Part shown: positions 4,998 through 63,673 of the stretch, piece by piece
Numbering within the stretch: position 1 is the first letter of the stretch
Layout: each line of letters begins with the position of its first letter
NCBI RefSeq assembly: GCF_004010195.1
Contig: NC_057718.1
Span: 82,539,848 to 82,603,847, forward strand
Origin: Chiloscyllium plagiosum
Taxonomy: Eukaryota
Direction: 5' to 3'
Length of the DNA stretch: 64,000 bases
Made by a program: the position numbers and the translations under genes
The notes under the pieces: model-generated
What the model was told of the DNA's origin: nothing
Database searches by the model: none
The model's input: the letters and a program-made list of their open reading frames with translations, nothing else

Positions 4998-5105
4998 AGG
5001 AGAAAGGACTGCAGATGCTGGAGATCAGAGTTGACAATGGAGTGCTGGAAAAGCACAGCAGGTCAGGCAGCATCCGAGGAGCAGGAGAATCGACGTTTCA
5101 GGCAT
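4998..5105 (-). mobile_element. PLE terminal-repeat fragment with partial hammerhead
   Basis: ggactgcagatgctgg...caggtcaggcagcatcc...gaatcgacgtttcaggcat, same family as 30425. Confidence 0.8.
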
Positions 5106-6731
5106 ATGGTTTTTTTTTGTTGGGTAAGATTATGGAGGGATTTAGAGCAACGATGAGTAAATGGAACTGAGCTGTGAATCTTTTCATGAACTAATTAATC
5201 TTATAGCTGAATGGCTTCCTCCTGAGAGACGTTCAAACTAGCATCCTGGTATAATTATAGCAACACCAAATTATCCACTGAATGGTAAGATGGACTTGCA
5301 GCTTGGTTGTCTTCAATAGCAGTGTTGTTTTTACAGATATTTTAGCGCTGAGATGATTTTTGGACATGACTGACCTTTGACAGCAGCCAAGGTTAAATGG
5401 TTAGAACAGTAATGTTCGGCAGCAGTCTAGTGGATTAGTGCATTAGCATCAGTGAGTGTTAAAAGTCTAGAAGTGCTATGGGGGAGTATTTACTAAAAAA
5501 AAAGACATATTTATGTCGGCCTTTTATGATCTCATTAAATTCCAAGTGGTATTTCAGCTGTTCAGTTATGTTCTTACGTTCCTGAAATGGCACCTGTACG
5601 CTCAGCCTTCTGATTCAGTGAAATAGCTACCACTAAGGCCCAGTTGATACCTTAATCAAAGCACAATTAACCAGCTCACTGGACTATAATATGAAAGAAA
5701 GATTTATATGTATTCAAGTACTTCATTGTATTTGAATTCCTTTATGAAAATATATTTAGTGGTCTGCACTCATTCAGATGGAGTAATTGTGTGGAAATTA
5801 TATTTTAAATACAATTGTTAAGGTTGTGGGAGCAGTGTGTTTGTTCTGGGGCAGGGCTGTGAATTGATGACTGGCCTGTTATTGCAGGGCTCCTCCTGTT
5901 GCCAATCCCAAAGCAAGTGCACTTGGTTTTCCAATCTCTGGATGTGGCAGTAGTCGACTGATACATTTTCACGAGTCAATGGGAAGATACAACGGGAAGG
6001 GAAATAGTTGTGAATCCTGCCAAGGGTTTGTGCTGATGAAGCAGCACATCACAACCCCATATTACAACAGGGATTACACTTCAAAAGTATTTTATTGCCT
6101 CTAAAATTAAATTTGAGGTTGTGAAAGCTGCTACATAATGCAGAAATAGGTTGTTTGTAAAATACTTGTCAACTTTAAACTTCAACTTTGAATCCACACT
6201 TGACAAAACAACGTTGAGATGGAATAAGGAAGCATAATTAATAAAATACCATTTAAATGTTGTTAAGGCCTTCAGCTCTGTCAGAACTCTCAATTCAGCC
6301 GACCTGCTACTCCCATTTTCAGCCTTGAATGAAATGAGGAAACATTACTATAGCATTAACAACATTAGCCTTAATTATTTAAATAAATAGTGTTTTCATA
6401 TGCTTTTTAGAGTTTGCTCCGATCATGTATATCCGAAGTTATCAAATTTAAAATATCACAAGGACTCCATAAATGTCCCATATAAATATAAATTGTGCCT
6501 TTTCACAATATATGCTTATTCCTGTCAGGGCACGTTTAGAATATCCATCAAAGCTCGTGTGCGGCCAGATGTCTATTGCGGTTTGCTGATATTTCTAAAA
6601 TGCCTGGTTGCGCTTCATTCAGACTCCCTGTTTGCAGTGGAAAATAATCACTGCTGAAGGTTTAACCCATGTAGCACTGGTTTTATTTTCCTACAGTCAA
6701 ATACTGATAAATCCAGGCCTAGTTAATTCTT

Positions 6732-6868
6732 AGCTGAAAATGTGTTGCTGGAAAAGCGCAGCAGGTCAGGCAGCATCCTGTTCCCTGGATGCTGCCTGAC
6801 CTGTTGCGCTTTTCCAGCAACACATTTTCAGCTCTGACCTCCAGCATCTGCAGCCCTCACTTTCTCCT
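6732..6868. mobile_element. Fold-back PLE-derived short element with 18-bp TSD
   Basis: Inverted arms of about 47 bp. Flanking direct repeat cctagttaattcttagct at 6718-6735 and 6869-6886. Confidence 0.85.
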
Positions 6869-8466
6869 CCTAGTTAATTCTTAGCTTATCCACCGTCTAA
6901 AACATTCTCTGAGCAGTCCTGTTCAGTATGACAAGGGCAGTAGGCTGTTAGCAGTTGACTACCTCCAGGTTCCCAATCAAGTAACACGCCAGCACATTTC
7001 TGATTGTTCGTACGATGTCCATATTGCCCATCCCTTAATTGTCCAAGGGCAGTTAAAAGTCAGTTACATTACTGTGGATTGGAGACACCTGTAGGATGAT
7101 TTTGTTCCCTAAAGGGCATTGGTGTGAGAGCTAGTTTTATTTAACAGCAATTGACATTGTTATACATGTCACCATTTGGCTGGTCTTGTATTGTAAATTT
7201 TTATGGAATTCAAATTTCATCGTTGCCTTAAGTCCTCAAAACATTAGCCTCATGTCCTGGATTGCTAGCCCAATGTCATTACCACTGCGTTACCATCTCC
7301 CAATATGTTGCTGTTGATTTATTGTTGCCTGAACGTCCTGGAAATGCCTACCTGATAGTATTGTGGGTATACCCTTGGTGTGTGGATGATAAGGGGTCAT
7401 AGCCACCACCTCAAGAGCTTAGACAAAATATCTGCTGTTTATTTGGAAGGCAAAAAGCTATTACTGAAATATTGAGCAACATATAGAACAGCTAGCTGCA
7501 CCTTTTAAATCCACTCAATTTAGTATTGTTTAACATAAACTCCATTTATAATAAGTACTACATTCAACAAGGCACAGGTCCAACCTAAATATTAAGTATC
7601 TGTTGCTGTCTTTGTGATGTTTTTATTTGACCTGTTAGGTGATTAAAATTGTCCACTAGATTTTGTATATTGCAGTAGCTAATCATCAAAAGGCATTGCA
7701 TTGGCTGTGAAGTGATTCCATGTTATGAATGGTGCTATATAAGTGCAAGTTTTCTGTTAGATTCAAATAATGCTTTTCAAAAGATTTCATGTAATGCCAA
7801 TTAATGATGGAAATACAGCAATAAGCTATTCCATTGTATATAAATCAGGGATCCTTTATTTTGGAAGATTACCTCAAGATTTTCTCCAGGGCTATTTCTT
7901 GATTTTACGGGGCTGCTTTTTCATTGTCATAACTGATGTATTATGTGATACAGTCACATCTCATTAGCGGGGCTTATCTGACACAATCGGCTGAATGTCA
8001 CGAGGTCGTACAGCACCTGCTCCAGTTGCAGTTCTGATGGTTCTGCTACCTCCTTCCCCTCAGTTTGGCCAAGGTCTGTGCCACGCATCAGGTAACATGA
8101 GATTTAAAAAAAGAGGTAAACCTGTAGAAATGCTAGAACCAGTAGATTGAATGTAGGAGAAAAGATAAGTTAGTGTTTTGTTGTAGATCAGGTGGCTCTG
8201 CTGGCTTGTTTCCAGTATTTTCTCTGTTTAAATAAAATATTGTTGTCTTCCTATCTGAACTGTAGATGTTAGCTACCACCTGATAGCACTATGGAAATGC
8301 AGTGGATTAACAAAAGAAAGTGCTTCTGTTTAGCCCTGAATTTGTATAGCCTCAGGTGTATGTGTCGGTGCACTTCCACGTTCCAGATAGTCTCGAATTA
8401 AAGCAAGGTAATTGTTTTGCTTTCTCTCCCCATCTTTCCTCCTTACCCTGTCTTCCTCTCTGTAGT

Positions 8467-8794
8467 CATGATTCGGCGATGCCGGTGTTGGACTGGGGTG
8501 TACAAAGTTAAAAATCTCACAATGCCAGGTTATAGTCCAACAGGTTTAATTGGAAGCACACTAGCTTTCGGAGCGACGCTCCTTCATCAGGTGGTTGTGG
8601 AGGGCTCGATCGTAACACAGAATTTATAGCAAAAATTTCAGTGTGATGTAACTGAAATTATACATTGAAAAATTGATTGTCTGTTAAGCCTTTCATCTGT
8701 TAGAATACAGTTAGAAGGAGTGTCGCTCCAAAAGCTAGTGTGCTTCCAATTAAACCTGTTGGACTATAACCTGGTGTTGTGTGATTTTTAACTT
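8467..8794. mobile_element. Fold-back hammerhead-bearing element (probably PLE-derived) with about 15-bp TSD
   Basis: Inverted arms about 8505-8584 and 8715-8794. Direct repeat cttcctctctgtagt at 8452-8466 and 8792-8806. Confidence 0.8.
8559..8593 (-). ncRNA. Minimal hammerhead ribozyme motif (intact core)
   Basis: Minus strand reads CAC-CUGAUGA-A-GGAGC-GUC-GCUCC-GAAA-G-CUA|GUG. Stem I CAC/GUG, perfect stem II, palindromic AGCU in place of stem III. Confidence 0.8.
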
Positions 8795-10327: not shown

Positions 10328-10470
10328 TGAAAACAGAAATTGTTAGAAAAACTCAGCAGATCTGACAGCATCTCTAGAGAGAAAGCAGAGTTAACATTTT
10401 GGGTCCAGCGACTCTTTTTCAGAACTGTTCTTCTTTCTGATTTTTGCATTCGCTGTTCTTTGTTTTATTT
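10328..10470 (-). mobile_element. PLE terminal-repeat unit with degenerate hammerhead (10389-10426)
   Basis: Minus strand AGTT-CTGAAAA-AGAGTC-GCTG-GACCC-AAAAT-GTT-AACT. Confidence 0.7.
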
Positions 10471-11315: not shown

Positions 11316-11447
11316 ACGAAACTGAGGACTGCAGATGCTGGAGATTAGAGTCGAGAGTGTGTGGTGCTGGAAAAGCACAGCAGGTCAGGCAGCATCTGAG
11401 GAGCAGGGGAATCGACGTTTTGGGCAAAAGCCCTTCACTAGGAATCT
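11316..11447 (-). mobile_element. PLE terminal-repeat monomer with 16-bp TSD and degenerate hammerhead
   Basis: TSD catatcaaaaaacatg at 11300-11315 and 11448-11463. The unit ends at ggaat, the stem I strand. Confidence 0.85.
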
Positions 11448-13160: not shown

Positions 13161-13256
13161 CAGTTCTGAGGAAGGATGGAAACATTAACTCTGCTTTCTG
13201 TCTCCACAGATGCTGCCAGACCTGCTGTGTTTTTCCAGTAATTTCTGTTTTTGTTT
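13161..13256 (+). mobile_element. PLE terminal-repeat unit, hammerhead with deleted stem II
   Basis: cagttCTGAGGAaggatgGAAAcattaactctg...gatgctgccagacctgctg. Confidence 0.7.
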
Positions 13257-17624: not shown

Positions 17625-20210
17625 ATCATAAGGTCGTAGGATAGAGCAGCAGAATTAGACCATTGAGTCTGCTCCATCATTTAATCATCAGGAGGCTGGA
17701 AGACCACAGCAAGCCTGGCAGCATCAGGAGGTGGAGGTTGACATTTTGAGTGAAACCCTTCTTCAGGACTGGGGGGAGCTGCAGTCATCGACCAACTAGG
17801 TCATACCCTCTACCTGTCTTCACCTATCCCCACTTCACCACCCTGGCCCTGCCACCTCCTTTATCTGTAGCTCCCCATACACCCAACCCCAGTTCTGAAG
17901 AAGGGTTACGCCTGAAATGTAACCACATCCTGATGCTGCCTGGCTTGCTGTGTTCTCCCAGTCTCCTGCCTGTTTACCTTGGATCCCAGCATCTGCAGTT
18001 TTTTTGTCTCCCACCATTTTACATGGCTGATATGTTTCTCCACCCCATTGTCCTGTCCACTCCCTGTAATGTTCAATCAAGAATCTATCTATCTCTGTCT
18101 TAAATCTATCTATCTCTGTCTTAAATGCACTTAATGACCTGGCTGCCACAGAAGGTTCTGGAGGCTATGAGTTCCACAGATTTACCTCCCTGTGGCTGAA
18201 GAAATTCCTCCTTATTTCAGGTGTAAAGGGTTGCCTTTTCACTCTGAGGCTGTATATCCTCGGGGCCTAGTCTCTCCTATTAGTGGAAACATCTTCTCCA
18301 CATCCACTTTGTTCAACCTTTCAGGATTCTGTAAGTTTCAAATTCCACCTCATCCTTCTATACTCCATTAATTACAGACCCACAGTCCTCATAGACTTAT
18401 CATATAACAAACCCTTCATCCCCAGGATCATTCCTGTAAATCTCCCCTAGACTCCCTCCAATGCCAGAACATCCTTCCTTAGATGTGAGGCCCAAAACTG
18501 CTCACAATGTTCCAAATGCAGGCTGACTACAGCCATATGCAGTTTTAGCTGTACATCTCTGTTCTTGTATTCTAGCCCTCTTGAAATGAATGTTGACATT
18601 ACATTGCCCTCTTAACTGCCAACTGAACCTGCAAGTTAACCTTCAGAGAACCCTGAACCATTTGTGCTTCAGATTTCTAAAGTCTTTCCCCATTCAGAAA
18701 ATATTGAATTATTCCTGCCAAGTGCACGACCTCACTTTTCCACATTGTATTCCATCTGGCTCTTTTTGTCCACTCTCCTAAACTATCCAAGTCCTTCTGC
18801 AGCATCCTCACTTCCTCAACATTACCTGTTCCTCCATCCGTCTTTGTGTCATCTGTTAATTTAGCAACAATACCCTCATTTCCTTCATCACGGTTGTTAA
18901 TGTATAATACGAATAGTTGCGATCCCAACACTGAGCCCCACGGAACTCTGCTAGTCACTGGCTGCCACCCTGAAAAAAACACTTTATCCTTTGCCTCTAC
19001 CAGACAGCCAATCCTCTATTCATGCTAGTACTTTGTCCCTAACAAAGGGCTCTTATTTAACTTAGCAATGTCCTGTATGGCAAAGGCCTTCTGGAAATCC
19101 AAATAGAACAGGTCCACTGGCTCTCCTTTGTCAATCTTGCTCATTACCTCCTCAATGAATTCCAGCAGATTTGTCAGGCATGTCCTTCCCTTGAGGAAGC
19201 TGTGCTGACTTAGCATTGTTTTACATACACTTCCTTAATAATGGACTCTAAAATCTTACCAATCATCGAAGTCAGGCTGAATGGTCTATAGTTTCCTGTC
19301 TTCTGCCTTTCTCCCTTCTTAAACTGGAGGTTACATTAGCTATTTTCCAGTCCTCTGGGACCATCCCTAATTCCAGTGATTCCTGAAAGATCACTATCAA
19401 TGCCTTTATGTTCTCCTCAGCTATATCTTTCACATCTCTGGAGTGTAGTCCATCTGGTCCAGGTCGTTTATCCACCTTCAGATCTTTCAGTTTCCCCAGC
19501 ATCTTCTCTTTTTTTGATGGCCACTGCACTGACCTCTGACCTCTGGGTCTCTTGAAGTTCTGGTGTGCCACTGGTGTCTTCCACTGTGAAACCTGATGCA
19601 ATGAACCTGTTCAGTTCCTCTGCCATTTGTTTGTTCCCCATTACTACTTCTCCAACTCATTCTCCAGTGGTCCAATGTCCACTTTTGCCTCTCTCTTACC
19701 TTTTTTATATATCTGAAAATAACTCTTGCAATCTTCTTTTAGTTAGCTTACTCTCATATTTCATCTTTCCCTGCTTATTGCTTTTTAGGTACCCTCTGCT
19801 GTTTTTAAAGGCTTCCCAATCCTCTGGCTTCTCACTAACCTTCACCACATTGTATGCTTTTCCTTTTGCTTTTATGCTTTCCCTGACTTCTCTTGTCAGC
19901 CATGTTTGCCTCATCCTCCCCTTAGTATCTTTCTTCTTCCTTGCGTTGCCTTTCTGTTGTGCATCCCAAATTATCCCCAGAAACTCCTGCCATTGGTGTT
20001 CAACCATCTTCACTACTAGGCTCCCCTTCCAATCAACTCTGGCCAACTCCTCCTCCATGTTTTTTATAGTTACCTTTACATTGTAATACAGTCACAACTG
20101 ATTCCAGCTTCTCCCTGTCAACCTGCAGGTTGAATTCTATCATATTGTGGTCACTGCTTCCAAGGGCTTGCTTCACTTTAAGCTCTCTAATCAAGTCTGC
20201 CTCATTGTAC
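17625..20210 (-). mobile_element. CR1 LINE (endonuclease end, RT, 3' end), with a PLE unit nested near its 3' end
   Basis: Minus-strand ORFs GPDGLHSR, GRTCLTNLLEF, YLDFQKAF, GSVLGSQLF, TDDTK. Confidence 0.92.
17689..18010. mobile_element. Fold-back Neptune-type PLE terminal repeat with two opposed hammerhead motifs
   Basis: Motifs at about 17737-17771 (-) and 17891-17924 (+, AGTT-CTGAAGA-AGGG-TTACG-CCT-GAAA). Inverted arms. Confidence 0.75.
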
Positions 20211-27873: not shown

Positions 27874-27899
27874 GTATAGTTTGTCACATAGCGTGGATT

Positions 27900-33712: not shown

Positions 33713-33714
33713 TA

Positions 33715-45764: not shown

Positions 45765-45947
45765 ACAGGATTCTCTGCCCAGTGCTGGCAGTATATTCTT
45801 CAGTCAAGCCCGCGACCTTCCTTTGGCCTTCAGTGGATGTTAGATAATTTGTGCACTTTTGTGTCTTTGAGTTACATGTTGGGCTATGGCCTCCAGCCGC
45901 ATGAGGTACGTTAACAGCACACTTTGTCCTATTCCTCTTGGTCGTAG

Positions 45948-46135
45948 ATCTTCAGGCTAAAATGTTGTCGACAGAGGCTGACCTAAAGAGCAAAGTGGAG
46001 GAGCTGGAGAAGCTGCACAGTCAGCTGATGGAGGCTGGATCAGAGAAAGAACGCCTGGAGGAAAGAATCAAGTCGATTGAAACTCTGCTCGAGGCTGGTC
46101 AGAACAAAGAAACAGAGAAAGGACTTCCAGCTCAG
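45948..46135 (+). CDS. RRBP1: RRBP1 coding exon
   Basis: cgtAG / GTtaga. 188 nt, (D)LQAKMLSTEADLKSKVEELEKLHSQLMEAGSEKERLEERIKSIETLLEAGQNKETEKGLPAQ. Phase 1-0. Confidence 0.92.
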
Positions 46136-47754: not shown

Positions 47755-48021
47755 GCTCTGCTAGGAGGCGTCCAGTTTCCCCAATGTAGAGGAGACTGCA
47801 TCGGGAGCAACGGATACAATAGCTGATATTAGTGGATGTGCAGGTAAAATTTTGATGGATGTGGAAGGCTCCTTTAGGTCCTTGGATGGAGGTGAGGGAG
47901 GAGGTGTGGGCGCTGGTTTTACAGTTCCTGCGGTGGCAGGGGAAGGTGGCAGGATGGGGGGGTGGGTCGTAGGGGGGCGTGGACCTGACCAGGTAGTCAC
48001 GGAGGGAGCGGTCTTTGCGGA

Positions 48022-48339
48022 AGGCGGAGAGGGGTGGGGAGGGAAATATATCCCTGGTGGTGGGGTCTGTTTGGAGGCGGAGAGGGGTGGGGAGGGAAAT
48101 ATATCCCTGGTGGTGGGGTCTGTTTGGAGGCGGAGAGGGGTGGGGAGGGAAATATATCCCTGGTGGTGGGGTCTGTTTGGAGGCGGAGAGGGGTGGGGAG
48201 GGAAATATATCCCTGGTGGTGGGGTCTGTTTGGAGGCGGAGAGGGGTGGGGAGGGAAATATATCCCTGGTGGTGGGGTCTGTTTGGAGGCGGAGAGGGGT
48301 GGGGAGGGAAATATATCCCTGGTGGTGGGGTCTGTTTGG
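48022..48339 (+). repeat. 53-bp minisatellite, 6 identical copies
   Basis: Unit aggcggagaggggtggggagggaaatatatccctggtggtggggtctgtttgg starts at 48022, 48075, 48128, 48181, 48234 and 48287. Confidence 0.95.
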
Positions 48340-49871: not shown

Positions 49872-49972
49872 CAGTGAAGAAGAGTCATACCAGACCCGAA
49901 ACGTTAACTCTGTTTCTGTCTCCACCGATGCTGCCAAACCTGTTGGTTTTCCCAGTACCTTCTGTTTCTATT
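49872..49972 (+). mobile_element. PLE terminal-repeat unit with hammerhead remnant
   Basis: gTGAAGA-AGAGTC-ATACCA-GACCC-GAAA-C-GTT-AACT. Confidence 0.7.
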
Positions 49973-50237
49973 TTATAATCTCATGTCAACAATGCAAAGA
50001 GAAGGGATGAAGTAGAAGTTAGGGGAATGGTGAGGGTTATATTAAAATACCAAGAACTGCTACTTGCTGCAGCAGCAATTTAATCCAAAATTTTGACTTG
50101 GAAGATGACTTCAGTGTAGCATCAATTCACACATTAATATTTGGGGCATCTGCTGGTTGAAATGGAGGTTTGTGAAAGGATGTGTTCTGCAAAAGGTATT
50201 ATGCCTAAGTTTGTTTTAATTTATTCTTACATTTCAG

Positions 50238-50275
50238 ACCACCCAACAGGAAGAACTGGAACAGTTGGGGAACAG
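50238..50275 (+). CDS. RRBP1: RRBP1 small coding exon (38 nt)
   Basis: atttcAG / GTaagg. Encodes TTQQEELEQLGN(R). Phase 0-2 is exactly what is needed to join the flanking exons. Confidence 0.85.
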
Positions 50276-50334
50276 GTAAGGTACAGTTCTGAAGCATGTA
50301 ATTGGGTGAGAGTGTGTGTAGCCGTGCGTGTTTG

Positions 50335-50772
50335 TACGGTATGCTTTCCTTTATTGGTCAGAGTATTGAGTACAAGAGTTGGGAGGTCATGTCGCGGCTG
50401 TACAGGACATTGGTTAGGCCACTGTTGAAATATTGCGTGCAATTCTGGTCTCCTTCCTATCGGAAAGATGTTGTGAAATTTGAAAGGATTCATAAAAGAT
50501 TTACAAGAATGTTGCCAGGAATGGAGGATCTGAGCTACGGGGAGAGGCTGAACAGGCTGGGGCTGTTTTCCCTGGAGTGTCGGAGGCTGAGGGGTGACCT
50601 TATAGAGGTTTACAAAATTATGAGGGGCATGAATAGGATAAATAGACAAAGTCTTTTCCCTGGGGTCGGGGAGTCCAGAACTAGAGGGCAAAGGTTTAGG
50701 GTGAGAGGCATGGACGGGTTGGACCGAAGGGTCTGTTTCCACGCTGTACATCTCTATGACTCTATGACTCTA
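50335..50772 (+). mobile_element. Young CR1/HER1 3' fragment with internal deletion
   Basis: Open frame LYRTLVRPLLKYCVQFWSP...RRLRGDLIEVYKIMRG. CTCTATGA tail. Confidence 0.92.
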
Positions 50773-51947
50773 TCTGTGAGTGTGTGCATGCATACCTGAG
50801 AGAGTGCACATAAGAGTGTGTGGATGGTACACTGTGGGGCGTATTGGTGAGGGTATAGTGAGTGTCCATTGGAAATAAGCATGGCAGGGAGATCCAAAAA
50901 GAATATAAGACTGAGTTAAGGCCAGCAATGCTATTTTCAAGCTCAGCAGTCTAGTGAACCTCCTCTCTCATACTCACACAACTGAACACACATCCAGCAG
51001 CAGGGGAAGGAATCTTCTATTTAAAGAGATTGTCAAGCATTTATAGACTTCCTATCAGTTGGCAACTACTTCTTTTGCTATGATTTGTGTTATAAGGGCA
51101 TCATAAGCATCTGCTCCTTTTTTACTGTTGTTTTAAGTTGAAAAAGCCTTCCGGTTGTGGAGTGATGTGGGCTGAAAGACTTTTTGCTGACTTCAAGGAT
51201 TCTGCACAAACCAATCAATCTTAGTCATTACTCCCCTGTTAGGCACTTCCCATGGAACACTTGGGGAAGACGAGATGCCATGTGGAGCAGGGCAAATTGT
51301 GAGAATTTAAGCAAAAGACATCAGCGCTTTTGGAAGCATATGTGTCAACTTAACTTCAACTCAAAAAGGGCAAGGACTGCATTCCCTGTGGCTGTGAAGA
51401 TCCTGTGATGATGAACATTTTAAAATCGGGCTCTTTTGAGGCTGGAGCTAATACATTTGAAACATCTCGCAGCTTATCACTGCTGAATAAGAGAGGCTAA
51501 TGTGGCTCGCGGTTCGAAGGAAATTTCAATTGCTCTCACAGGGACAAGCAATTGTCAGCAACCATGTTGCTTTTTGGGAAGGCAACCGACCCAGTGTTTC
51601 AAGATACCACTGGCTGCCCCTCCCTCACCAAAATGTTTTTCAAATGCCATATTCAAATCTGCCCTTAAACAGAGCCAGAGAGAATTGCACCCTGACTCTC
51701 CAACCGCCTTGTGACTTTAGATAGATCAGTGGCCAAAGTCCTGGCAGCAGTTACCATTCCTCCGTCCAATGCAGTCTGTTGCACCAGCTGCATTTGAGCC
51801 AACAAGGCAAATTAAAGGATGGCTATGTGACATCCAGAGTCATTTGCTCACCAGCCACATGGCTGATGACTCAAGGGTGCAACCCATATTTCTATATGGT
51901 ACATTTATTAAGTGGAGGCCATGCTGCTAAACAAAGCATGATGGAAG

Positions 51948-52473
51948 ATAGTCATAGAGATGTACAGCACGGAAACAGGCCCTTCGGTCCAACTTGTCCA
52001 TGCTGACCAGATATCCCAACCCAATCTAGTCCCACCTACCAGCACCTGGCCCATATCCCTCCAAACCCTTCCTATTCATATACCCATACAGATGCCTTTT
52101 AAATGTTGCAATTATACCAGCCTCCACCACATCCTCTGGTGGCTCATTCCATACACATACCACCCTCTGTGTGAAAAAGTTGCCCCTTAGGTCCCTTTTT
52201 ATATCTTTCCTCTCTCACCCTAAACCTATGCCCTGTGGTTCTGGTCTCCCACACCCCAGGGGAAAGACTTTATTTGTACGATCCATGCCCCTCATGATTT
52301 TATAAACCTCCATAAAGTCATCCCTTAGCCTCCGACGTTCCAGGGGAAACAGCCTTAGCCTATTCAACCTCTCCCTATAGCTCAATACCTCCAACCCTGG
52401 CAACATCCTTGTAAATCTTTTCTGAACTCTTTCAAGTTTCACAACATCCTTCCAACAGAAAGGAGACCAGAAT
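51948..52473 (-). mobile_element. CR1/HER1 3' fragment
   Basis: KLERVQKRFTRMLPG... on the minus strand. Confidence 0.92.
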
Positions 52474-53721
52474 CCTGAATGACCACAATTGTTAGTCAGT
52501 GTGAGTTAGCCTGTGGTGATTTAAGCAGTGCCTATGATGATTCTACATTCACCCATCTTGATCATTGGACAATTTGGACACTGAGGCCTTGTCCCTAGGG
52601 CATGATTTCTAATCTTGAGCTCCACATCTGTCTGCTTCCACTGCCTTTTCAATGTGTGTCCAGAGTGACTCTGGGGAAACTGGATCTCTCAATCTCTGTT
52701 CTATGTCCCCCATGAGACTTCAGTCCAATATCTGTAAATCTCGGCTCAAACACTTTTCCATGTTGTGTCAATCATTATGGTTTCACAAGTCACATTCACT
52801 TACTGCACAATGCCAGCACCTATTCCAGCTACTACTTTAAGTGCACCTTTTCTTTAAGTGACAGGTTCGTTCATGGGATATGGGTGTTGCTGGTTGGGCC
52901 AGCACTTGTTGTCCCTGACATGGCGATTATGAGCTGTATTCTTGAACCCTGCAATACCTGCATGGTAGGTAGACCCACAATGCATTCAGGGAGAGAATTT
53001 CAGGATTAACACTGAACAAACAGCGATATATTTCAAAGTCAGGATAGTGAGTGGGTTGGATGGGAACCTGCAATTTGTTGTCTGAGAGTGCAAGGAAAAG
53101 ACAAACACACAACCTCAACACCAAGGAGAGGGAAGCACTGAAATCACTAAGAAACGATAAGAACATAATCATACTACCAGCAGACAAAGGCAGAATGACG
53201 GTCATCCTGGACAAAGCAGACTACATCCAAAAAGCGCAACAACTACTTGCAGATACCAACACCTACCAAAAGAGGGGGTTTGACCCCCCCCCCCCCCCAC
53301 CAAATAGGATAAACAACACACTGAGGAACCTAAAAAAAACAGACAGATAACCAGGCTTGACCTACAAAGAATGAAACCTGAAAGCAACAACACCCCCAGA
53401 TTCTATGGACTACCTAAAGTGCACAAACCAGACATCCCACTCAGACCCATAGTATCACTACCAGGGACACCATCACACAAACAGGCTAAAGAAATACAGC
53501 AGAAACTGAAACAACTGATCAGCGGATCCAGACACTCTATACAATCAACACAGGAATTCTTGCACATCATCAGAAATATACACATAGACAAGGAAGAAAC
53601 CATGGCCTCATTTGATGTAACGGCACCGTTCAAACAGATTCAATCAATAAGCACATCGACCTGGACCCAATATACCGACCACTGCAACGGACAGCTGGAA
53701 CTGACAACCGGAAGCGGCAGA

Positions 53722-54247
53722 NNNNNNNNNNNNNNNNNNNNNNNNNNNNNNNNNNNNNNNNNNNNNNNNNNNNNNNNNNNNNNNNNNNNNNNNNNNNNNN
53801 NNNNNNNNNNNNNNNNNNNNNNNNNNNNNNNNNNNNNNNNNNNNNNNNNNNNNNNNNNNNNNNNNNNNNNNNNNNNNNNNNNNNNNNNNNNNNNNNNNNN
53901 NNNNNNNNNNNNNNNNNNNNNNNNNNNNNNNNNNNNNNNNNNNNNNNNNNNNNNNNNNNNNNNNNNNNNNNNNNNNNNNNNNNNNNNNNNNNNNNNNNNN
54001 NNNNNNNNNNNNNNNNNNNNNNNNNNNNNNNNNNNNNNNNNNNNNNNNNNNNNNNNNNNNNNNNNNNNNNNNNNNNNNNNNNNNNNNNNNNNNNNNNNNN
54101 NNNNNNNNNNNNNNNNNNNNNNNNNNNNNNNNNNNNNNNNNNNNNNNNNNNNNNNNNNNNNNNNNNNNNNNNNNNNNNNNNNNNNNNNNNNNNNNNNNNN
54201 NNNNNNNNNNNNNNNNNNNNNNNNNNNNNNNNNNNNNNNNNNNNNNN
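53722..54247. other. Assembly gap
   Basis: Run of N. Confidence 1.
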
Positions 54248-54529
54248 GACACGACCAGCTATCCTTAGTAGCCACACACGCAGATGACAAGCAACCTGAG
54301 TTTGACTGGGACAACACTACTATCTTAGGACAAGCCAAACAGAGAACAGCCAGGGAATTCCTAGAGGCATGGCACTCATCCACAGGTTCAATCAATAAGC
54401 CCATTAACCTGGACCCAATATACCGACCACTGCAATGGACAGCTGGAACTGACAACCGGAAGCGGCAGATTCAAACCACTATAAATGCCGGAGGAAAGAT
54501 CACCGAAGCGCTTCACAGGAGGCTCCCAA

Positions 54530-54569
54530 GCACTGAGGATGTCACCTAGACAGGGGACGAAATGTCTGC
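54530..54569 (+). ncRNA. Minimal hammerhead ribozyme motif in PLE terminal repeat
   Basis: GCA-CUGAGGA-U-GUCACC-UAGACA-GGGGAC-GAAA-U-GUC|UGC. Confidence 0.75.
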
Positions 54570-54849
54570 AACACAAATTCCCACTCGGCGAACAGAACCA
54601 CAACAACGAGCAGCCGAGCTACAAATCTTCTCACAAACTTTGAACAGCTTAATCACACATTGTAATCCCCACACTTGTTTCCATTCTGTGATTTAGTAGC
54701 CCTCGGCGAACAGAACCACAACAACGAGCAGCCGAGCTACAAATCTTCTCACAAACTTTGAACAGCTTAATCACACATTGTAATCCCCACACTTGTTTCC
54801 ATTCTGTGATTTAGTAGCCCTTGTGCGTGTGAGAGACTACATGCACCTG

Positions 54850-55232
54850 GAGATAATGAGGATTGCAGATGCTGGAGAAGTCAGAATCGATAAAGTGTGG
54901 CGCTGGAAAAAGCACAGTAGGAAGTAAATAGCGGGAGGGAGGTGGGGCTAGGCCAAAGGTAGTGGGATGGCGATAGGTGGGCGAAGGACCACCGTCTTGA
55001 CCTGGTTTAACTGTCCATCTTCCTTCCCTCCTATCTGCTCCAACCTCCCCATTGACTAATCACAATCACCTCCTACCTTCACCCATCTATCCTTAGCCTC
55101 AGCTCCATCGCCCCCCATTTATTTCCCAGTCCCCTTCCTCCTCCCCAGTCCTGAGGAAGGGTTATGCCCGAATTGTCGACTTTCTAGGTCCTCGGATGCT
55201 GCCTGACCTGCTGTGCTTTCCCAACGCCACAC
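54850..55232. mobile_element. Fold-back Neptune-type terminal repeat, hammerhead at 55147-55181
   Basis: AGTC-CTGAGGA-AGGG-TTATG-CCC-GAAT-T-GTC-GACT. Inverted arms. Confidence 0.75.
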
Positions 55233-55326
55233 TTATCAACTACAAGCATGTGTGTGTGTGTTGTGTGTGTGTAGTTAGCTGATTCTGTGGTTACCAGTCT
55301 CTTTATGCTCACTGTTTTGTCTTTAG

Positions 55327-55417
55327 GCTAAAGGATAAAGATATTCAGATTACCACTTTGGAACAGGAGGTACTGCAGCTCAAAGAAACAATTGAACAGC
55401 AAAAAAACAAAAACAAT
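55327..55417 (+). CDS. RRBP1: RRBP1 coding exon
   Basis: ctttAG / GTgagt. 91 nt, LKDKDIQITTLEQEVLQLKETIEQQKNKNN. Phase 2-0. Confidence 0.93.
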
Positions 55418-55949
55418 GTGAGTGTTTTATTACTTATGTTTTAATCCTGGTTTTCAGGAAGAGTTTTCATGCCCAATGTACTATTGTATAAAGAGCTTCA
55501 TGGTTCAGGTCAGAGTTCACATTCCCCATACAGGAGGGCTCCACTTGGACTGGAATCCTGGCAATGGCAAAAGGCAGAAGTTTAATTTCAGTGATGCAGA
55601 ACTTTGTCTGACAGAACAAGTATCAGGAATTCTGGCACAGAGGTCATGAAGGCCTGAGGAGAGGACTTGCAGATGTATGTATGCAGAGGTCTGATATGAA
55701 TTTCCACTGAGAACTCCACATCCACCGGGCATCAATTGCATATCTTCTTGGACCTGTTATTTGATAATAGTTTCCTTCATCAGTTGAGACTGGATATCAC
55801 TACATCAGCCAAAGTGTTTGAGGTAAAATGGGACATATGACAGGACTTGCGGCAAACAGTACATTATTTAAACAGAATCACTGCAAACAGAATTCCTCAA
55901 TTATATTGCAGCAGACTCCCAATAAATGCTGCAAAATACAGTCAGTGAA

Positions 55950-56292
55950 TCATGATGTGTCTGGACAGAGTAGATAGGGGGAAACTGCTCCATTAGTGGA
56001 AGGATTGGGAATTAGAGACCACCAATTTAATGTAACTGACAAAAGAAACAATGGAGGAATGAGGAAAGCCTTTATTGAACAGCGAGTGGTTGATGTCTGG
56101 AGTGCACCATCTGAGAGTGTGGCGAAAGCAGTTTCAATCATCTAAGAGGGAATTGGATTATTATCCATGAAGGAAGAATGTGTTGGGTTGCGAGGAGATG
56201 ATGGCCGAGCAGCAGTAGGCAAATTGTTCATTTGGGGAGCAGGCATAGACAAAATGGGCTGAATGGTCACCTGTGTTGTAACAATTCTGTGA
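55950..56292 (+). mobile_element. Old CR1 3' fragment
   Basis: Degenerate FxQRVVxVWxxL coding region plus 3'UTR. Confidence 0.65.
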
Positions 56293-58465
56293 ATGTGAAA
56301 GGATATATAGCTAAGGAAGTAATGTGGAGTTGAGATGTATATTAAATTTGGTTTAAATAAACGATGAAACAGTGCTGACTGACCTACTGTTCCCATCATG
56401 TTACACTACCCAGCTGCTGAGATTAGTGTGAAGTGATTCCATTCATCTCTGCCTTCTCTCTGGCTGAATTGCCATTCATGTGTGGGTTTTGACACCACTG
56501 AGTTTTGCCATGATGCCTGAGTTGTCAGATTCTGATTTAGAGTAGATTCGCCACTCAGTATGTCTGAGCTTGTTGATTAGAAATTATCTGTAACTATGGA
56601 ACACTTTGTGGTTGTGGAACATTAATTAGAATAGTACAGCACAGAAGGAAGCTATCGGACCTCAAGCCTGTGCTGTCTCTTTGGAAGAGCTGCCTCGTTG
56701 GTCTCACTTCTAACTCTTTTTGTATCCCTGCAGCTTTTTTCTCCTTCAAGTAGTTAGCCAACTCCCTTTTGAGGGAGTTGTGAATTAATTTCCACTAGAC
56801 TTTCCGGCAGAGTGGTCAAAATCCTAACAAATGCAACTTTCTCATGTTGCCCTGGTTCTTTTGATATCTCCTTAAATCTGTAACTTCTGATTTATCAACC
56901 TGTCAACCATTAGAAACAGTTTTGCTTTATTTAAACCCTTCAGGATTTTATGCACTTTATTAAGATTTCCTCTCTTCCCTCTTTGCTCTCACGAGAAAAT
57001 AATAACTTCTCCAGTCTACCCATAAAACCAGATAATTTCTGGTAGATGTCTTCTGTACCCTTTCAAAATGCAAGGATCTTATGTGTGAAGATTTCCCTAA
57101 TTTCACCACTGAGCGGCTGGGCTTTAATTCACCCTCTCCTCCTACTCTCCCCAATCTGCTTCTGAGAATCTACCATACCTGTTCTTTTTAATCGTTTAGC
57201 TCAACTTATTTTTTTAATTGAACTGTTAAATTTTAATGTTATTAATACAGTTGAGAGTATTATTACTCATGGTAATTCCAGAATGGCAGTGTGTGAGAGC
57301 TGACTGCTATAAGTTTAGCCATATGATACAGGTATAGTGAAGTAGAATTAGTCTGTTTGCATCAACAGTTCAAGTTACAATTAAAAATGATTGTTTTACT
57401 TTTTGTTTTAAGAAACCAAGCAGACATTAGTATCACGGAACTCTGAGCAGGATCGGGATACTTTCCCTGCAAAAGAGAAACTAAAATTGGAATCAAAAAA
57501 ACAAAATGCTGCATTTTGCTTTAGACTTAAACCTGATAGAGGTCTTAATGAATCGTTTTATGAAGAGATTTGAGAAAATGAATGTGGAGAAACTGCTTCT
57601 ATTGTTCAAGTTCAGAACAAAGGACCATAAATATAAGAAAGACACTGACAATGCAATTGTGTAGTGAGAATGCAAAACCTGCCCCCACATAGTGGTGGAA
57701 GCAGTTACTGCAAACTGATGTATTTAGTCGGAAACTTTATGCATATCATAGGGAGTTGGGAGTGGAAAGGTGTGGGAACAGAGTGAGAAGAGGTAATTAG
57801 AGTGAGGGAAGGCTGTGCTGTAAATTCTGTATAATTTTATATGACTTCAGCCAAAGGTATACATGCCCATTATGTATTTGTTGAGCAATGCTTAGTGGTA
57901 GTATATCAGGGCTATTTTGAGATCTGGTCCCATATTTTTATCTTTGTGACAGGAATTGATCTTTTCCTGAGATTGCCACCAGCCTCCTGCCTGGTTGAGT
58001 CTCTAATTTTGTAGTGGCATGGGAGTAGATGCACTGGAGTCAGGTTCCCCAACTCTGAAAGCAAGAAGTGGGTGGATACTGAAGCAGATAGATTAAAAGA
58101 CACCTGTGTTCACTGAGGCATCAATCCATTATTGTACGTGTGTTAGACACCCTAGCCCTCCCACTCTGCCATGTTCCTCCATATCTCCTCTGCTCCCTGT
58201 GCCATGGCTCCAGAGATTGAACAGATGGTGAGGCTGTCAATCAATGTAAAGATCAAAATATCGGGTCCAATTGACAGGCAAATATATGAAGTTCAATACT
58301 GTTGAATGCAGAAGAGCACTTTACCCACTGGAGAAAGTAATGTACCTGAAGATTTTTCCACTTGCACAATGTTGGTTAATTTATTGGTTTCTTTTCTAAA
58401 TATCTATCATTCATCACTGTATTTATAGATGCATTTAACTTATTACACAATGTTTAATTATAACA

Positions 58466-58637
58466 CAGAAGAACCTCGGTTATCCAGCATTCAATTATCC
58501 AAATATTGGATTATGCGGCATGATCGCAAGGTCCTGATGCTCGATTGACTGTTATCCAGCATTCAATTATCCGGAATTTGATTTACCGAATGAAATACTC
58601 CCCGCTCATCTCCTTTTGGATAATTGAGGTTCCTCTA
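58466..58637. mobile_element. Tigger/pogo-like MITE, about 170 bp
   Basis: TIRs cagaagaacctcggttatcc / ggataattgaggttcctcta. Internal repeats ttatccagcattcaattatcc. Confidence 0.75.
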
Positions 58638-59784
58638 TAATATGAAGTTGGGAAGAACTTTAAAATTTACCTGTCATAAAGTTCTGACTCCCAGCAAGGG
58701 ATCTATTATGGTTTGCAACTCTTCTGAGCTGTGGCAAGCCGAACTCCATGAAAATAGTAGTGAGTCTAAAATGCCAACCCTGCAATGGGTTAGCTAAGTG
58801 TGAGATGGTTTTGTGTGAGCTCAGTATTTGAACATTCATTCTGGCCTTTTAAAAATCCCACACGGTGGAAATGGAAGCAGGAATCACAGCACTGTCTCCC
58901 GATTGTCATTTTTAAATGTTGCTTGCCTCCATTTCGACATGAATGGAGGAATTAAACCCCCTGGTGAGGGAAGGTGAATCCTGGTTTATGAACACAACAG
59001 GCTGGACAGAAACATGCATTTGCCTCATTTTCCCGTCATCCCAGCCACTATTTGTCCCAAGGCCCTTCATGACTCTGAAGGAATAGAGAGATTTTGGAGA
59101 TTGAAACTGTGCAGGAGCCAGGAGGTGGATGGTCCTTGTTAGCTCTAGGAAACAAAGACATGAGAAACTTGCTATTAAATTGTGATTTAACAGAGAAGTT
59201 GAAATTGTTTTCATATTATTTCATATTGTTTCATGACCTGGTCCGTCCCTATCTCAGTAGCCTCCTATATACCACTAAAATGTTAGCACTATTACAATTC
59301 TGCCTTTTGCTCATCCTTGGTTTTTTTCTCATTGGCTCCACCACCCTGTTTTTTTAACAGATCCATCCATCTTTTACCTAATTATCTCACATCCTGATCA
59401 TTTCCTTATGGATGCCATTGTCTCATATTTATGGCACTGAGGTGGTGCTTGTATTGTTGGTGCTTCCTGTGACATTAGTGGGATGGTCCAACATGGCGTC
59501 TGGGATCTTGGGACCCCTAGCTGGCCCAGATTGGTGGCAGCAGGTAGAATGCAGGCCACAGCAAGTTCAGACCTTGGGTCCAGGGTGGGGGAGGTGGGGA
59601 GGATGGTGGAAGCGTGACTGGCCTAAGGAGTGGTGATGGGAGGGGGTGATACTGACTGATAACTCCAATGCCAGCCCCAAATCGAGTGTCAACTTGTCCT
59701 TTTATTTACCCATAGAGTTCATCACCCTGGATTCAATTGTGACATAGTGAAAGTGAAATAGTGAAAAGAAATTAGGCATATAAT

Positions 59785-60262
59785 GACATATAAACAAGGG
59801 CAGGAGGAGGCCATTCAGCCCATCGAGCCTGCTATGCTATTCAAAAAGATCATGGCTGGTCTGATTGTAACCATTCCTATCCACTCCTGATAACCTTTCA
59901 CACCCCCAGTTTAACATGAGGCTATCTACCTCTGCCTTGAAAATATTCAAGGATTCTGCTTCCAACATATTCTCAAGAAGTGAGTTCCAAAGTCTCTCAA
60001 TAATGGTGCCTTATCTCTGTCTTAAATGGGCAACCCTTAATTTTTAGACGCCCTAGTTCTATATACTCCCATACAAGGAAACATCCTCCCCCATCTACCC
60101 TGTCAAGACACCTCAGGATTTTGTAAGTTTCAGTCAAGTCACCTCTTACTCTTCTAAACTCCAGCAGCTATAAGTTGAGCCTATCAAACCTTTCCTCACA
60201 AGACAACTTACTCATCTTGTGTCTTAGTCTGGTAAACCTTCCCTAAATTGCTTCAAAGGCAT
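59785..60262 (-). mobile_element. Old CR1 3' fragment
   Basis: Similar to 42290-42630 and 31790-32200. Confidence 0.75.
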
Positions 60263-60549
60263 TTAGGGAATGGAACTAATTGGATAGATTGTTTAGGGAG
60301 TTGGCACAAACGTGATGGGCCACATGGCCATTTTCTCAGATATCGGATTTTAAAACCAATTCGAATTGAGCATTGTTTCTTCCCCCAGCTGACATTCGAT
60401 GTAAAGTTAAGGTCTGTGTGGTGTTATGATTATTGATCATCACTACACAGTTCAAGTGGAGATGATGTACTAACCCACATGCATCATTAGCTAAACTCCA
60501 GGCCCTGCCATGAACTCCAGTCTCCCTTGCCTTTGGCTATTTTACAGAA

Positions 60550-60940
60550 ATCAGTTCAGTGGTAACACTCTTGCCTCTGGGTCAGGGGGTCTCACTTCAG
60601 AGACTTGAACCACACACACACACTGACACACCAGTGCAGAAGAGAAAGAGTGCTGCAGTGTTACAGGTATCATTTATCAGATGGAACACCAAACCAATGC
60701 TACTATTTGAAGAAAAATTGGGGCGTTGTCCCAGTGTCCTGGTCAATATTTATCCCTCAACCATGTAACTAAGGAAAACACTAATCTGGTCATTATCACA
60801 TAATGTCTGTGGGACCTGGCTGTCTACAAATTGATTGCTGCAGTTCATACATTACAAGTGACCACATTTCTTAAAAAAAACAGGTTCCGCTGTAAAGCAC
60901 TTGGGATATGCTGAGATAATGAATGGCATCAAATAAATGG
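60550..60940 (+). mobile_element. DeuSINE/SacSINE1-like ancient SINE
   Basis: tRNA-like head (cagtggtaacactcttgcctct), Deu-like core and tail tgtaaagcacttgggat...ataaatg. Related fragments at about 6050, 7620, 23250 and 46200-46700. Confidence 0.6.
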
Positions 60941-61015
60941 GAGGTTTGTTTCTGCTTGGTATCTTGCGTGTGAAACTGTGCATGGCGTGTCATTAAAAAA
61001 ACTGTTTCCAAATAG

Positions 61016-61108
61016 GACCTTCGAGCGAAAAACTGGAAGGCCATGGAGGCTTTGGCATCAGCCGAAAAAATGTGCGGGGAGAAATTCATTGCTGCTAAGC
61101 ACATAAAG
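61016..61108 (+). CDS. RRBP1: RRBP1 coding exon
   Basis: aatAG / GTtgta. 93 nt, DLRAKNWKAMEALASAEKMCGEKFIAAKHIK, containing the DLRxKNWKAMEAL motif of the RRBP1/kinectin family. Confidence 0.94.
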
Positions 61109-61559
61109 GTTGTACTCTCCGTGATATAATGGCATGTATTCAGTGCTTTTGCATTCTCTAAAGGAATTTTTTACAATCTGGGCTATGCTGCTTATCTGCT
61201 CAACAGTGGTATTTTCCCCTGTTGACTCAGTGGTAGATTGGGGTCAGGTAAGTAGCAATTGCTAGGGCAGAAGGTGCTGGAATGTTCAGTTGGAGCAGCA
61301 ATCAAAGAGAGACCCAATTCTTGTCATCAACAACTCTTACCATGTACAATATTAAGAGAATTGATATATGTGTTTGGCAAATCACTCTTGATCTCACATA
61401 GGCTGCTTTCATTAGAAGGTACGATAAAGAATGCACCCCAGTAAGCATCTCTGATGTTCTGCTGATTCATGTGTGCATCAAAATAGTCTCATTTATCAAA
61501 ATAATCATCTGGTTGATTGAATATGTTAGAGTCCATTTACTAAGGGCACTATCATGACC

Positions 61560-61781
61560 ATGTGTGGAATGCTCTGCCCCAGAGGGCAGTGGAGGCCCAG
61601 TCTCTGGATTCATTTAAGAAAGAGTTGGATAGAGCTCTCAAAGATAGTGGAATCAAGGGTTATGGAGATAAGGCAGGAACAGGATACTGATTAAGGATGA
61701 TCAGCCATGATCATGTTGAATGGCGGTGCAGGCTCGAAGGGCTGAATGGCCTATTCCTGCACCTATTGTCTATTGTCTATT
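61560..61781 (+). mobile_element. CR1 3' end
   Basis: VWNALPQRAVEA...FKKELDR. (ATTGTCT)n tail. Confidence 0.85.
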
Positions 61782-62960
61782 CGTTGGATATTGACACTTC
61801 TGGCGAAAACAATGTCTTCACGTTCAACCCATACACCATCGCCTGCTGATAAAGGACAACTTCCAGATCGAAGTTGATACATACCCGAATGACACCTCTA
61901 GTTCTCTGTCACTATTTGAGATTTTAAATTAATTGCAGTATCAAGTCAATTTCTGATCTCTGCCCCCAGCTCAGTCTACCTTTTGCTGAAAACTTCATTT
62001 AGGTTCTTGTCAGCTCAAACTTTTGTGAGATGACCATCTTCCCATTCCACACCCTCCATAACCTTCATCTGGTTCAGAAAACCCATGATCTAACACTCAC
62101 CACATCCTGTTAATCCAAATGTCTGATACTGCAACAAATTTTGCATCTTAAATCCTGAGGGGGCATATTTCTGTAGTGAGAGAACCAGAGTTAATGTTCA
62201 AGTCTGTGATCTTTCAGCAGAATTGAGAATAGTTAAATCCAGAATAATGAAGGCATAAATTGAAGTTTTTGAACAACGGATGAGCTAAAGCAGTTGTGAA
62301 GTTTGGCAGTGTTATGGAGATGGGATCGGCCATCATAGTGAGGCTGGAAGCTTATATTTGACTCAAATGTGATTTGATCTGAGAATGTTGCCAGGGAGAG
62401 GAATGGAGTTGGTAGCTGGGGAGCAAAGATTGAATGGGGTAGTGGAGGGTTAATGACAACAATGGCCTCACAATTGCCAATATTTAGTTGGAGGAATTTT
62501 CTACTTATCCGATGCTGGATGTTGGGTAATCTGGCAACGGTGGAGCAGTCAAGAGAGGAACATGGTGGTGTTGGTTGAAATGCAAAAACAAAACAACACC
62601 TGATTGTCATGGGCATGGATTCCCAAAACAAAGAGAGAGGCATCAGTGCAAATGTGGCTTCTAGAGACTGGCTTGGTTATCTTTGACATCGTCAATCCTG
62701 CATTTAGTGATGTTATGGGTGCTTTTAATCAAAAGTATTTTCAACAAATTAATGAAACAGAAGGAGAAATGGGTTCTTGATCATCATGAATCATTTAATG
62801 AAAACTCCTGTCTCATATCAAATTTCTTTTTGATGTTTTCTCCCTGATGAGATTGCTGTCATATCAGGGACAGATTGATTGGACTGCACGATTCATCACA
62901 CATTCCTGGTCAGACTTATTCTCACCTATTAAATAAATCTATTTATGTATCTCTTTTTAG

Positions 62961-63053
62961 GAAGAGGCAGAGAACCAATTAAGATTGGTCCACACACAGA
63001 CCAAAGAAATGCTTCAGGGGCTCTTCCCAGAGGTGTCAGTATCCTCACAACAG
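62961..63053 (+). CDS. RRBP1: RRBP1 coding exon (last in window)
   Basis: ctttttAG / GTaaga. 93 nt, EEAENQLRLVHTQTKEMLQGLFPEVSVSSQQ. Phase 0-0. Confidence 0.92.
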
Positions 63054-63487
63054 GTAAGAGATGATTATTTGTTGTCTAAATGATCTCAATTTTAGTGGGC
63101 CAGCAACTGTGTTTTTAATTGAAAAGATGGAATTCTAAATTGTACTGTCAGCAACAATACTGTACATTTCCCATCATGCTTGACACCAGATTGAAGATGC
63201 GAGGTCCAATCTGTGCTCAGTTGGCTGAACTGAGGGGAAAAGACTCTACAGGTCCTCCTTTTGATTGCTATCCAGTGACCCCTGCTGGAACATCCATGTA
63301 TGTGCAGACTTCCAGTGAATCCAGCTCAGCCTCAGCTGTCAAACTGTCTGAACTCTGTTAAGACAAATGATCATGCAAGTGATGTCAGAGCTTTATAGAT
63401 CAGGCTGAGCCATAGCCAGGCAGCAGTGCCTCAGTTGAAAGCCTTGTTGGGTCATATAGTAAAGGTGAAGTCACCATAGTCCTAGAG

Positions 63488-63673
63488 ACAGTGAGGACCG
63501 CAGATGCTGGAGATCAGAGTCGAGAGCGTGGTGCTGGAAAAGCACAGCAGGTCAGGCAGCATCCGAGAAGCAGGAGACGGGCTTATACTCCTGATGAAAG
63601 GCTTATGCCTGAAATCTCGATTCTCCTCGGATGCTGCCTGACCTGCTGTGCGTTTCCAGCACCACAGTCCCAA
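63488..63673. mobile_element. Fold-back PLE-derived element with hammerhead in loop (63587-63622) and 13-bp TSD
   Basis: TSD catagtcc(t/g)agag at 63475-63487 and 63674-63686. CTGATGA-A-AGGC-TTAT-GCCT-GAAA. Confidence 0.82.

Follow-up and report, generated by a model that had tools for sequence, protein, structure and literature searches.

Hammerhead motifs in the introns of RRBP1

In this work we analysed a stretch of 64,000 nucleotides of the bamboo shark Chiloscyllium plagiosum (contig NC_057718.1, positions 82,539,848 to 82,603,847), from here on called the window, in which minimal hammerhead ribozyme motifs recur within a single host gene, RRBP1. Coding exons of RRBP1 flank and cross the entire window on the plus strand, in agreement with the first-pass annotation, a reading of the letters alone that placed all motifs in one gene. 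A 50-residue exon in the window is identical to bamboo-shark RRBP1 records, the gene's first coding exon is located 17.6 kb ahead of the window, and more exons follow after it. The motifs are almost certainly the dead-on-arrival 3' ends of endonuclease-positive Penelope-like retrotransposons (Penelope-like elements, PLEs).

A hammerhead-family repeat was found at all 18 positions listed in the first-pass annotation, whose minus-strand coordinates give the low end of the motif; the core starts are collected in Table 1. The 18 sites correspond to 16 insertions and are not all separate, since two pairs of sites (17737-/17891+ and 25222-/26253+) are each the arms of one insertion with target duplications. 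All core bases are kept at eight sites (8590, 13166, 17895, 26257, 30525, 37014, 54533 and 63591), six sites have one core change and four have two or more, with the core state of the B-family sites and of 49874 re-checked by eye. Many copies are decayed, as the first-pass annotation had noted. An intact core together with stem I (3/4 pairs) and stem II is found at five sites (8590, 30525, 37014, 54533 and 63591), two of which, 8590- and 30525+ on opposite strands, also retain the palindromic loop III. The weakest assignment is 27962, which has an alignment score of 54.5 and matches no other window copy in the family comparison.

An exact-core descriptor gave six matches in the window, where 20 Markov controls averaged 0.65, and a descriptor allowing one core mismatch gave 23 compared with 13.75 in eight controls. 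Taken by itself the relaxed pattern yields mostly noise, and the decayed copies therefore rest on family homology. An Rfam scan of the window returned 20 matches at E<=10, none of them a hammerhead.

Where at least four families had been proposed, we resolved nine sequence clusters. Their consensuses carry the core CUGAnGA, GAAA and UH as well as the expected palindromic 15.1-16.1 region with no stable stem III, which reads ACGU in A and F2, AGCU in E and is present in CpG-decayed forms in C, D and F1. The stems covary around the fixed core, as the first reading had suggested: in 12 natural copies 83.9% of the cells are paired compared with 57.9% after shuffling, the covariation score was reached by 0/500 shuffles, slid controls were 20-45% paired and 7/8 stem pairs are changed on both sides. 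These figures overstate typical copies, because the 12 were hand-picked for good stems. The stem I of family A carries a U-U mismatch, and single-motif folding z-scores were not significant in 6/7 cases, as expected for minimal hammerheads.

Penelope-like identity of the families

The window motifs are the pseudo-long terminal repeat (pLTR) plus tail of Neptune- and Poseidon-type PLEs, which is a known association. The motifs are minimal type I hammerheads of PLEs, and reverse transcriptase (RT) and endonuclease remnants lie directly upstream of the motif in six of seven family groups. Within the window, open reading frame (ORF) remnants precede the cores at 54533 (53072-54546, +), 26257 (25758-26060, +), 25250 (25415-25843, -), 39758 (39938-40399, -) and 45006 (45249-45554, -). 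Judged by these upstream remnants, families A, B and F are linked to the Neptune type and families C and D to the Poseidon type. Homologues of the window remnants match RVT_1 and GIY-YIG; of the window PLE fragments themselves, 0/9 matched Pfam. A CX2-5CxxC linker defines Neptune elements (PMC8557442). It is present between RT and endonuclease in the homologues P0030 and P0031, one of its cysteines is changed in the window copy, and our Neptune assignment follows from its presence and not from an RT tree. The homologue P0001 has no linker zinc finger, and on this basis, again without a tree, we provisionally class families C and D as Poseidon-type. Searches with two protein fragments gave 13,272 and 62,985 first-look genome candidates, which are not copy numbers, and the best protein matches are gapped or broken. 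Selection on the hammerhead acted in the active source elements and not in these window copies.

For family E no ORF remnant was found upstream of the seven long copies examined. The upstream region of this family is long and AT-rich and starts at (CA)n or (TG)n tracts (L054, L135, L132, L072).

A MAP3K7 isoform record of the bamboo shark (P0004) contains a stretch that matches part of the Poseidon-type endonuclease region at 93% identity, which may be an exonisation or an annotation artefact.

Genome-wide load

We sampled 80 evenly spaced 10-kb regions of contigs C1-C6 and C10, amounting to 774,491 non-N bases. In the first 60 regions a strict descriptor picked out 42 motifs, compared with 0-3 in five controls. 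By homology the 80 regions contain 207 arms, as we call the repeat copies, of which 136 have a recognisable core and 75 an intact core, the latter counted with no stem requirement. These numbers correspond to 267 arms, 176 recognisable cores and 97 intact cores per Mb. The window holds 29 arms over 62.9 kb, or 461 per Mb (~1.7x the sampled mean), and is only modestly enriched. Scaled to 3.0 Gb, the genome would hold roughly 0.8 million arms, 0.5 million recognisable cores and 0.3 million intact cores, so that the expectation of a very large ribozyme number stands. This suggests one of the largest hammerhead-core loads among vertebrates, making up a few per cent of the genome.

The decay of the arms is largely CG to TG or CA. 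One subfamily of family F has U3 instead of C3 and A8 instead of G8 (8/13 arms of its cluster; L036:4649-4687 (+), with further copies in L036, L129, L030 and L031). This core covariation has been reported from Schistosoma PLEs.

Ends of the arms

Positions are counted from the cleavage site as 0, so that the family A core starts at -28. For family A we used arms with at least 85% identity from the 80 regions and censored ends at gaps or region edges. There is a sharp 5' hotspot: 33/58 arms at risk stop at -35..-26, compared with 4/75 at the cleavage site (-5..+4) and 0-1 of 18-21 per 10-base bin further upstream, from -46 to -95. In family E 11/33 and in family F 19/58 of the 5' ends fall within core-8..core+2, with the family F positions blurred by subfamily divergence; ends at most two bases from the cleavage site number 0 in E and 1 in F. 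Beyond the hotspot, host DNA or the partner arm adjoins directly. At the -32 base the depth of public reads and contigs changes in a step and loose ends occur, and among the matches listed (12 of 29) the joints into this base end in G in 4/4 cases. The hotspot carries the words TCATT in family A and TCAGT in family F, which we take to match the initiator consensus.

The 3' ends are bimodal, with medians of +59/+97 in A, +56/+93 in E, +65/+89 in F and +43/+75 in D. The stretch between the two ends is the tail, and 62/123 solo arms are tailed. Among short solos 7/22 have a target duplication score of at least 8.

Two other readings of the ends were discarded. An inversion breakpoint at the cleavage site was suggested by top matches chosen by likeness to a query with that junction, and the evenly spaced sample ruled it out. 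A spliced template with an intron ending at stem I was rejected because the stubs keep the AG and, by eye, share no upstream exon. At the stem I position a pyrimidine tract and an AG do occur in families F and B.

Head-to-head pairs

In total 45 head-to-head pairs were found. Our counts refer to the 35 same-family pairs in the sampled regions with a gap of at most 70 bases; the other 10 are seven window pairs (one mis-paired across families) and three with longer gaps. All 35 consist of one tailed and one tail-less arm. A target duplication score of at least 8 is reached by 25/35 pairs compared with 6/300 swapped-flank controls, and exact target repeats of 9-18 bp (median 14) occur in 24/40 pairs. 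The tail-less arm reaches at least five bases further 5' in 18/35 pairs, the tailed arm in 10/35, and the two agree within four bases in 7/35. In those 18 pairs neither arm contains the other. In the insertion L035 the arms are offset against each other, with a difference of 160 bases on the 5' side and of about 38 bases on the 3' side.

Non-consensus sites are more often common to the two arms of an insertion than to unrelated arms. In family A (18 pairs) the mean is 2.89 compared with 0.78 for unrelated arms, with a permutation p of 0.0005, and 11 of the shared variants are private to one insertion; for E and F p is 0.01 and 0.001. The two arms must therefore derive from the same source element or the same molecule, or have undergone conversion. 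Some junctions between the arms are near-perfect palindromes, and the overlaps at the junctions are too noisy to bear out primer-template microhomology.

In the insertion at 25156-26385 the likeness between the long arms is only about 76%, and upstream of the core their sequences diverge. They could stem from two different source elements, which would directly support two priming events.

A candidate hairpin at the tail

In families A, F, E, D and C, which form three unrelated sequence groups, a predicted stem of 6-9 bp is formed between the tail and a segment that begins at +16 to +18; the best stems have p values of 0.01-0.14 singly. This hairpin, which seems to keep a constant position, would join the 3' part of the pLTR (+16 to +26) to the tail and leave the short 3' end in the loop. 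Consensus folds recover it in A/B/F and in C/D, with one compensatory change each, and pick another register in family E. The published anole template has, by eye, a 7-bp stem from about +20 (PMC11167929). The tail hairpin is a candidate RT-binding element.

Other features of the window

Table 1. PLE-derived arms, pairs and remnants of the window and the RRBP1 exons, in window coordinates; numbers after "core" are core starts.
Feature	Position	Strand	Details
Family A tailed arm	4998..5106	-	Truncated inside the hammerhead, no 5' core
Family A head-to-head pair	6732..6867		Tail-less (-) and tailed (+), no core; 14-18 bp target duplication
Family E pair	8456..8794		Long tailed arm (-) with intact hammerhead (core 8590); short tail-less arm (+); target duplication
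Family F tail-less arm	10330..10427	-	Core 10422, two core changes
Family A tailed solo arm	11318..11445	-	Core 11441, three core changes; ends at hotspot; 16-bp target duplication; 5' junction with two extra bases, the last a G
Family F arm	13162..13256	+	Core 13166, intact; stem II deleted
Family B pair, one insertion	17689..18010		Short tail-less (core 17766-) and longer tailed (core 17895+)
Large head-to-head insertion	25156..26385		Two Neptune-type endonuclease 3' remnants, each followed by a hammerhead (cores 25250-, 26257+); 11-bp target duplication
Decayed F-like motif	27925..27966	-	Core 27962
Family D (Poseidon-type) tailed arm	29904..30150	-	Core 30013, one core change
Family A palindrome	30424..30648		Intact hammerhead (core 30525+), both arms tailed, no clear target duplication
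Family F pair	35350..35523		Tailed and tail-less, no 5' core
Family A tailed arm	36891..37018	-	Core 37014, intact; ends at hotspot
Family B arm	39674..40399	-	Core 39758, one change; Neptune-type endonuclease remnant upstream
Family D arm	44921..45554	-	Core 45006, one change; Poseidon-type endonuclease remnant upstream
Family A tailed arm	45669..45764	+	No core
Neptune-type remnant	47116..48733	-	RT thumb, CX2-5CxxC-type linker, GIY-YIG; broken, spans an assembly gap
Family F arm	49869..49973	+	Core 49874, C3 changed
Poseidon-type RT and endonuclease remnant	53072..54642	+	Broken, gap inside; ends in family C hammerhead (core 54533) and tail
Family A pair	54849..55241		Tailed, no core (-); tail-less (core 55151+, one change)
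Family A pair	63485..63674		Tailed from +3 (-); tail-less with intact core (63591+); target duplication
RRBP1, ten coding exons (amino acids 228-656)	24551..63071	+	Host gene

Beside N gaps in the PLE remnants there are 53-bp tandem copies and duplicated stretches (47969-48392, 53634-53721 and 54584-54821), which look like assembly artefacts. The window palindromes at 30469-30594, 63543-63650 and 6742-6823 have weak scores against several Rfam microRNA models. Palindromic PLE insertions in introns may give rise to false microRNA calls or to long double-stranded RNA. The window also contains 3' fragments of long interspersed nuclear elements (280-632, 1090-1734, 2196-2916, 16419-17010, 50302-50799 and 51950-52473), which are presumably of the CR1-like class, and Pfam gives an RVT_1 match at 1090-1731.

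Origin of the stubs

The explanation that accounts best for these observations overall is probably that PLE 3' ends arise by priming at two sites and by run-off of an uncleaved RNA. For the origin of the short stubs in particular we lean towards two internal RT starts, the use of both nicked target strands and run-off at the RNA 5' end. The element RNA would start at the initiator-like site about four bases before the CUGA core, so that the ribozyme comes first in the transcript. The RT would bind the hairpin downstream of the cleavage site and start at two internal sites, which in family A lie near +59 and +97, the tail being the stretch between them. After a staggered cut of 12-15 bp by the endonuclease, each target strand would prime at a different one of the two start sites. 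Complementary DNA (cDNA) made on the 5' repeat copy would pass through the uncleaved ribozyme and off the RNA 5' end, giving stubs of 90-130 bases, and cDNA made on the 3' repeat copy would run into the ORF and be truncated at variable points. Joining of two cDNA ends head to head would then yield a palindrome in which only one of the arms is tailed. Such run-off stubs can be likened to retroviral strong-stop DNA. Of these points, the PLE origin, the 5' hotspot, the tail asymmetry, the target duplications and the variants common to both arms are observed, and the transcription start, the two primings, the uncleaved template and the part played by the hairpin are inferred.

Parts of this scheme have been reported for the anole Poseidon element in vitro (PMC11167929), where both strands are cut and extended, two internal starts bound the tail, a dimer is predicted, and uncleaved RNA is used; ribozyme cleavage is not needed there and is assisted by the protein.

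Several points weigh against the scheme of two-site priming and run-off. In the same anole work the start site is the same for both strands (PMC11167929). In Drosophila virilis Penelope the start site is described as lying upstream by 46 bases and a 75-base intron (PMC2377424), with the hammerhead at the end of that intron (PMC4209133). Among 2,026 raw reads of one run there was no pile-up at an RNA start or cleavage end; these reads come from both strands, and 94% continue into unlike sequence. A second run yielded no matching reads. An extra G at the 5' junction, as a cap would leave, was considered and dropped (6/12 compared with 41% expected, p 0.36). A clear initiator-like word is missing from family E, whose ends are also more widely spread (-29 to -40), and measured 5' ends can be displaced where palindrome centres were later deleted or where F subfamilies have diverged. 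The window palindrome 30424-30648, which is outside the 35-pair count, has two tailed arms. The copies compared include none at full length with a 5' repeat and an intact ORF, and the small chromosomes lie outside the sampled contigs.

An unlikely but real rival keeps the PLE origin and takes the hotspot as a point within a longer RNA or cDNA at which processing or stopping occurs, either because the endonuclease cuts the element's own DNA there or because the RT drops off after unwinding the ribozyme. The family A hotspot begins with ATT, a motif preferred by anole Poseidon, whose enzyme is reported to cut its own ORF-pLTR junction (PMC11167929), tails and inverted repeats have been ascribed to endonuclease resolution (Craig 2021, PMC8557442), and about a third of the hotspot-reaching arms pass the hotspot (25/58). 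However, F, F2, E and D carry other words at the equivalent place, and a structural stall is expected at the 3' side of the structure, where there are few ends.

It is less probable still that the palindromes arose by self-priming, with the cDNA folding back and being copied, or by later gene conversion of the second arm. Self-priming has been proposed from palindromic junctions of rotifer PLEs (PMC3846280), and it would suit the variants shared between arms, including the 11 insertion-private ones in family A, and the near-perfect palindromes at some junctions. A copied arm must lie within the first, whereas each arm has unique sequence in 18/35 pairs and the L035 arms differ at both ends. 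That in half of the pairs neither arm includes the other speaks against simple fold-back, and the tail asymmetry in 35/35 would need an added trimming step.

The first-pass annotation had read the motifs as a mostly non-autonomous ribozyme system. The corresponding explanation, in which families resembling short interspersed nuclear elements or retrozymes have their own masters and are amplified via ribozyme cleavage and circular RNA, is very unlikely. A fixed 5' boundary, the high copy number and the want of an ORF remnant in family E would fit it, and tandem retrozymes derived from PLE repeats are known, one of them chondrichthyan (bioRxiv 10.64898/2026.07.22.740005). But every sampled family has long copies beside short stubs, six of the seven groups have ORF remnants upstream, the junctions vary among otherwise similar palindromes, and L035 joins a long and a short arm of one subfamily. 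In addition the ends avoid the cleavage site, and the window arms and sampled contexts contain no tandem units, although a genome-wide tandem search was not made. The stubs are most likely truncated copies of autonomous elements and not separate non-autonomous families.

That the intronic hammerheads serve the host by cutting RRBP1 pre-mRNA has next to no likelihood: three sense copies (30525, 54533 and 63591) retain core and stems, but only that at 30525 also keeps the dimer palindrome, its 96-bp inverted arm can take up the 3' strand of its stem I, decay is mostly CG to TG or CA, and the solo arms lie in both orientations (9 minus, 6 plus). Judging from their sequence the intronic copies are probably inert, because a single sense copy keeps core, stems and palindrome.

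Returning to two-site priming and run-off, a more far-reaching form of it is somewhat less likely than not. Several hundred thousand frozen PLE integration intermediates would then record an undescribed mechanism, in which both target strands are primed in one event at two fixed internal RNA sites, set by a hairpin whose position is conserved between Neptune and Poseidon families, an uncleaved hammerhead stands at the 5' end of a capped RNA, and strong-stop-like cDNAs are joined. If this is true, the hammerhead would be a decapping or circularisation switch and not the cutter that defines the template.

Comparison with known systems

No paper on shark PLE hammerheads, and none on a 5' stop at the core with an obligatory tail asymmetry, was found in the open-access literature. 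The observation as first given is ordinary, because the link between motif and element is known; the host lineage and the high load are new, and the kind of sequence is not. What the PLE hammerhead does, and how tails and inverted repeats originate, are stated as open (PMC8557442, PMC11167929). The main value of our results is mechanistic, in that the stub ends and their pairing hint at how PLEs copy themselves. The stub anatomy predicts a start at -32, one start site per strand and an uncleaved template.

The shark motifs resemble the minimal hammerheads of metazoan PLEs (Cervera and De la Pena 2014, PMC4209133) in the type I core with a short stem I, the unpaired base before stem II, the G10.1-C11.1 pair, the palindromic loop III and the U3-A8 core variant. 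They also share with them the prevalence of solo copies from truncated PLEs and pairs on opposite strands at distances of 100-700 bp. The accessible parts of that survey do not mention sharks. Our extrapolated intact cores, about 0.2-0.3 million, greatly exceed the 9,000 in Xenopus and 4,000 in coelacanth, counts for which the descriptors differ (PMC4209133).

The unit described for endonuclease-positive PLEs has a pLTR, an inverted 5'-truncated copy, an optional tail of 30-40 bp and a target site duplication (PMC8557442, PMC3846280), and all four features are present in the Neptune- and Poseidon-type families here. Unlike the canonical unit, the shark unit has mostly shrunk to arms of 90-130 bases, whose 5' ends stop sharply right in front of the core. 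In 35/35 pairs a single arm carries the tail, and corresponding counts were not found in the accessible parts of those papers.

The non-long-terminal-repeat retrozymes of animals are, like the shark copies, non-coding, hammerhead-bearing and kin to PLE terminal repeats (bioRxiv 10.64898/2026.07.22.740005). Retrozymes are arranged in tandem head to tail, whereas the shark copies are scattered as solos and as head-to-head pairs that carry target duplications, and are abundant in introns.

A further parallel is the anole Poseidon work (Frangieh 2024, PMC11167929), with its two RT starts bounding the tail, extension of both strands, an uncleaved RNA template and a stem-loop downstream of the ribozyme. 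In its accessible parts that work maps no transcription start and does not explain inverted pairs. The genomic pattern in the shark suggests that the two strands use different start sites in one event.

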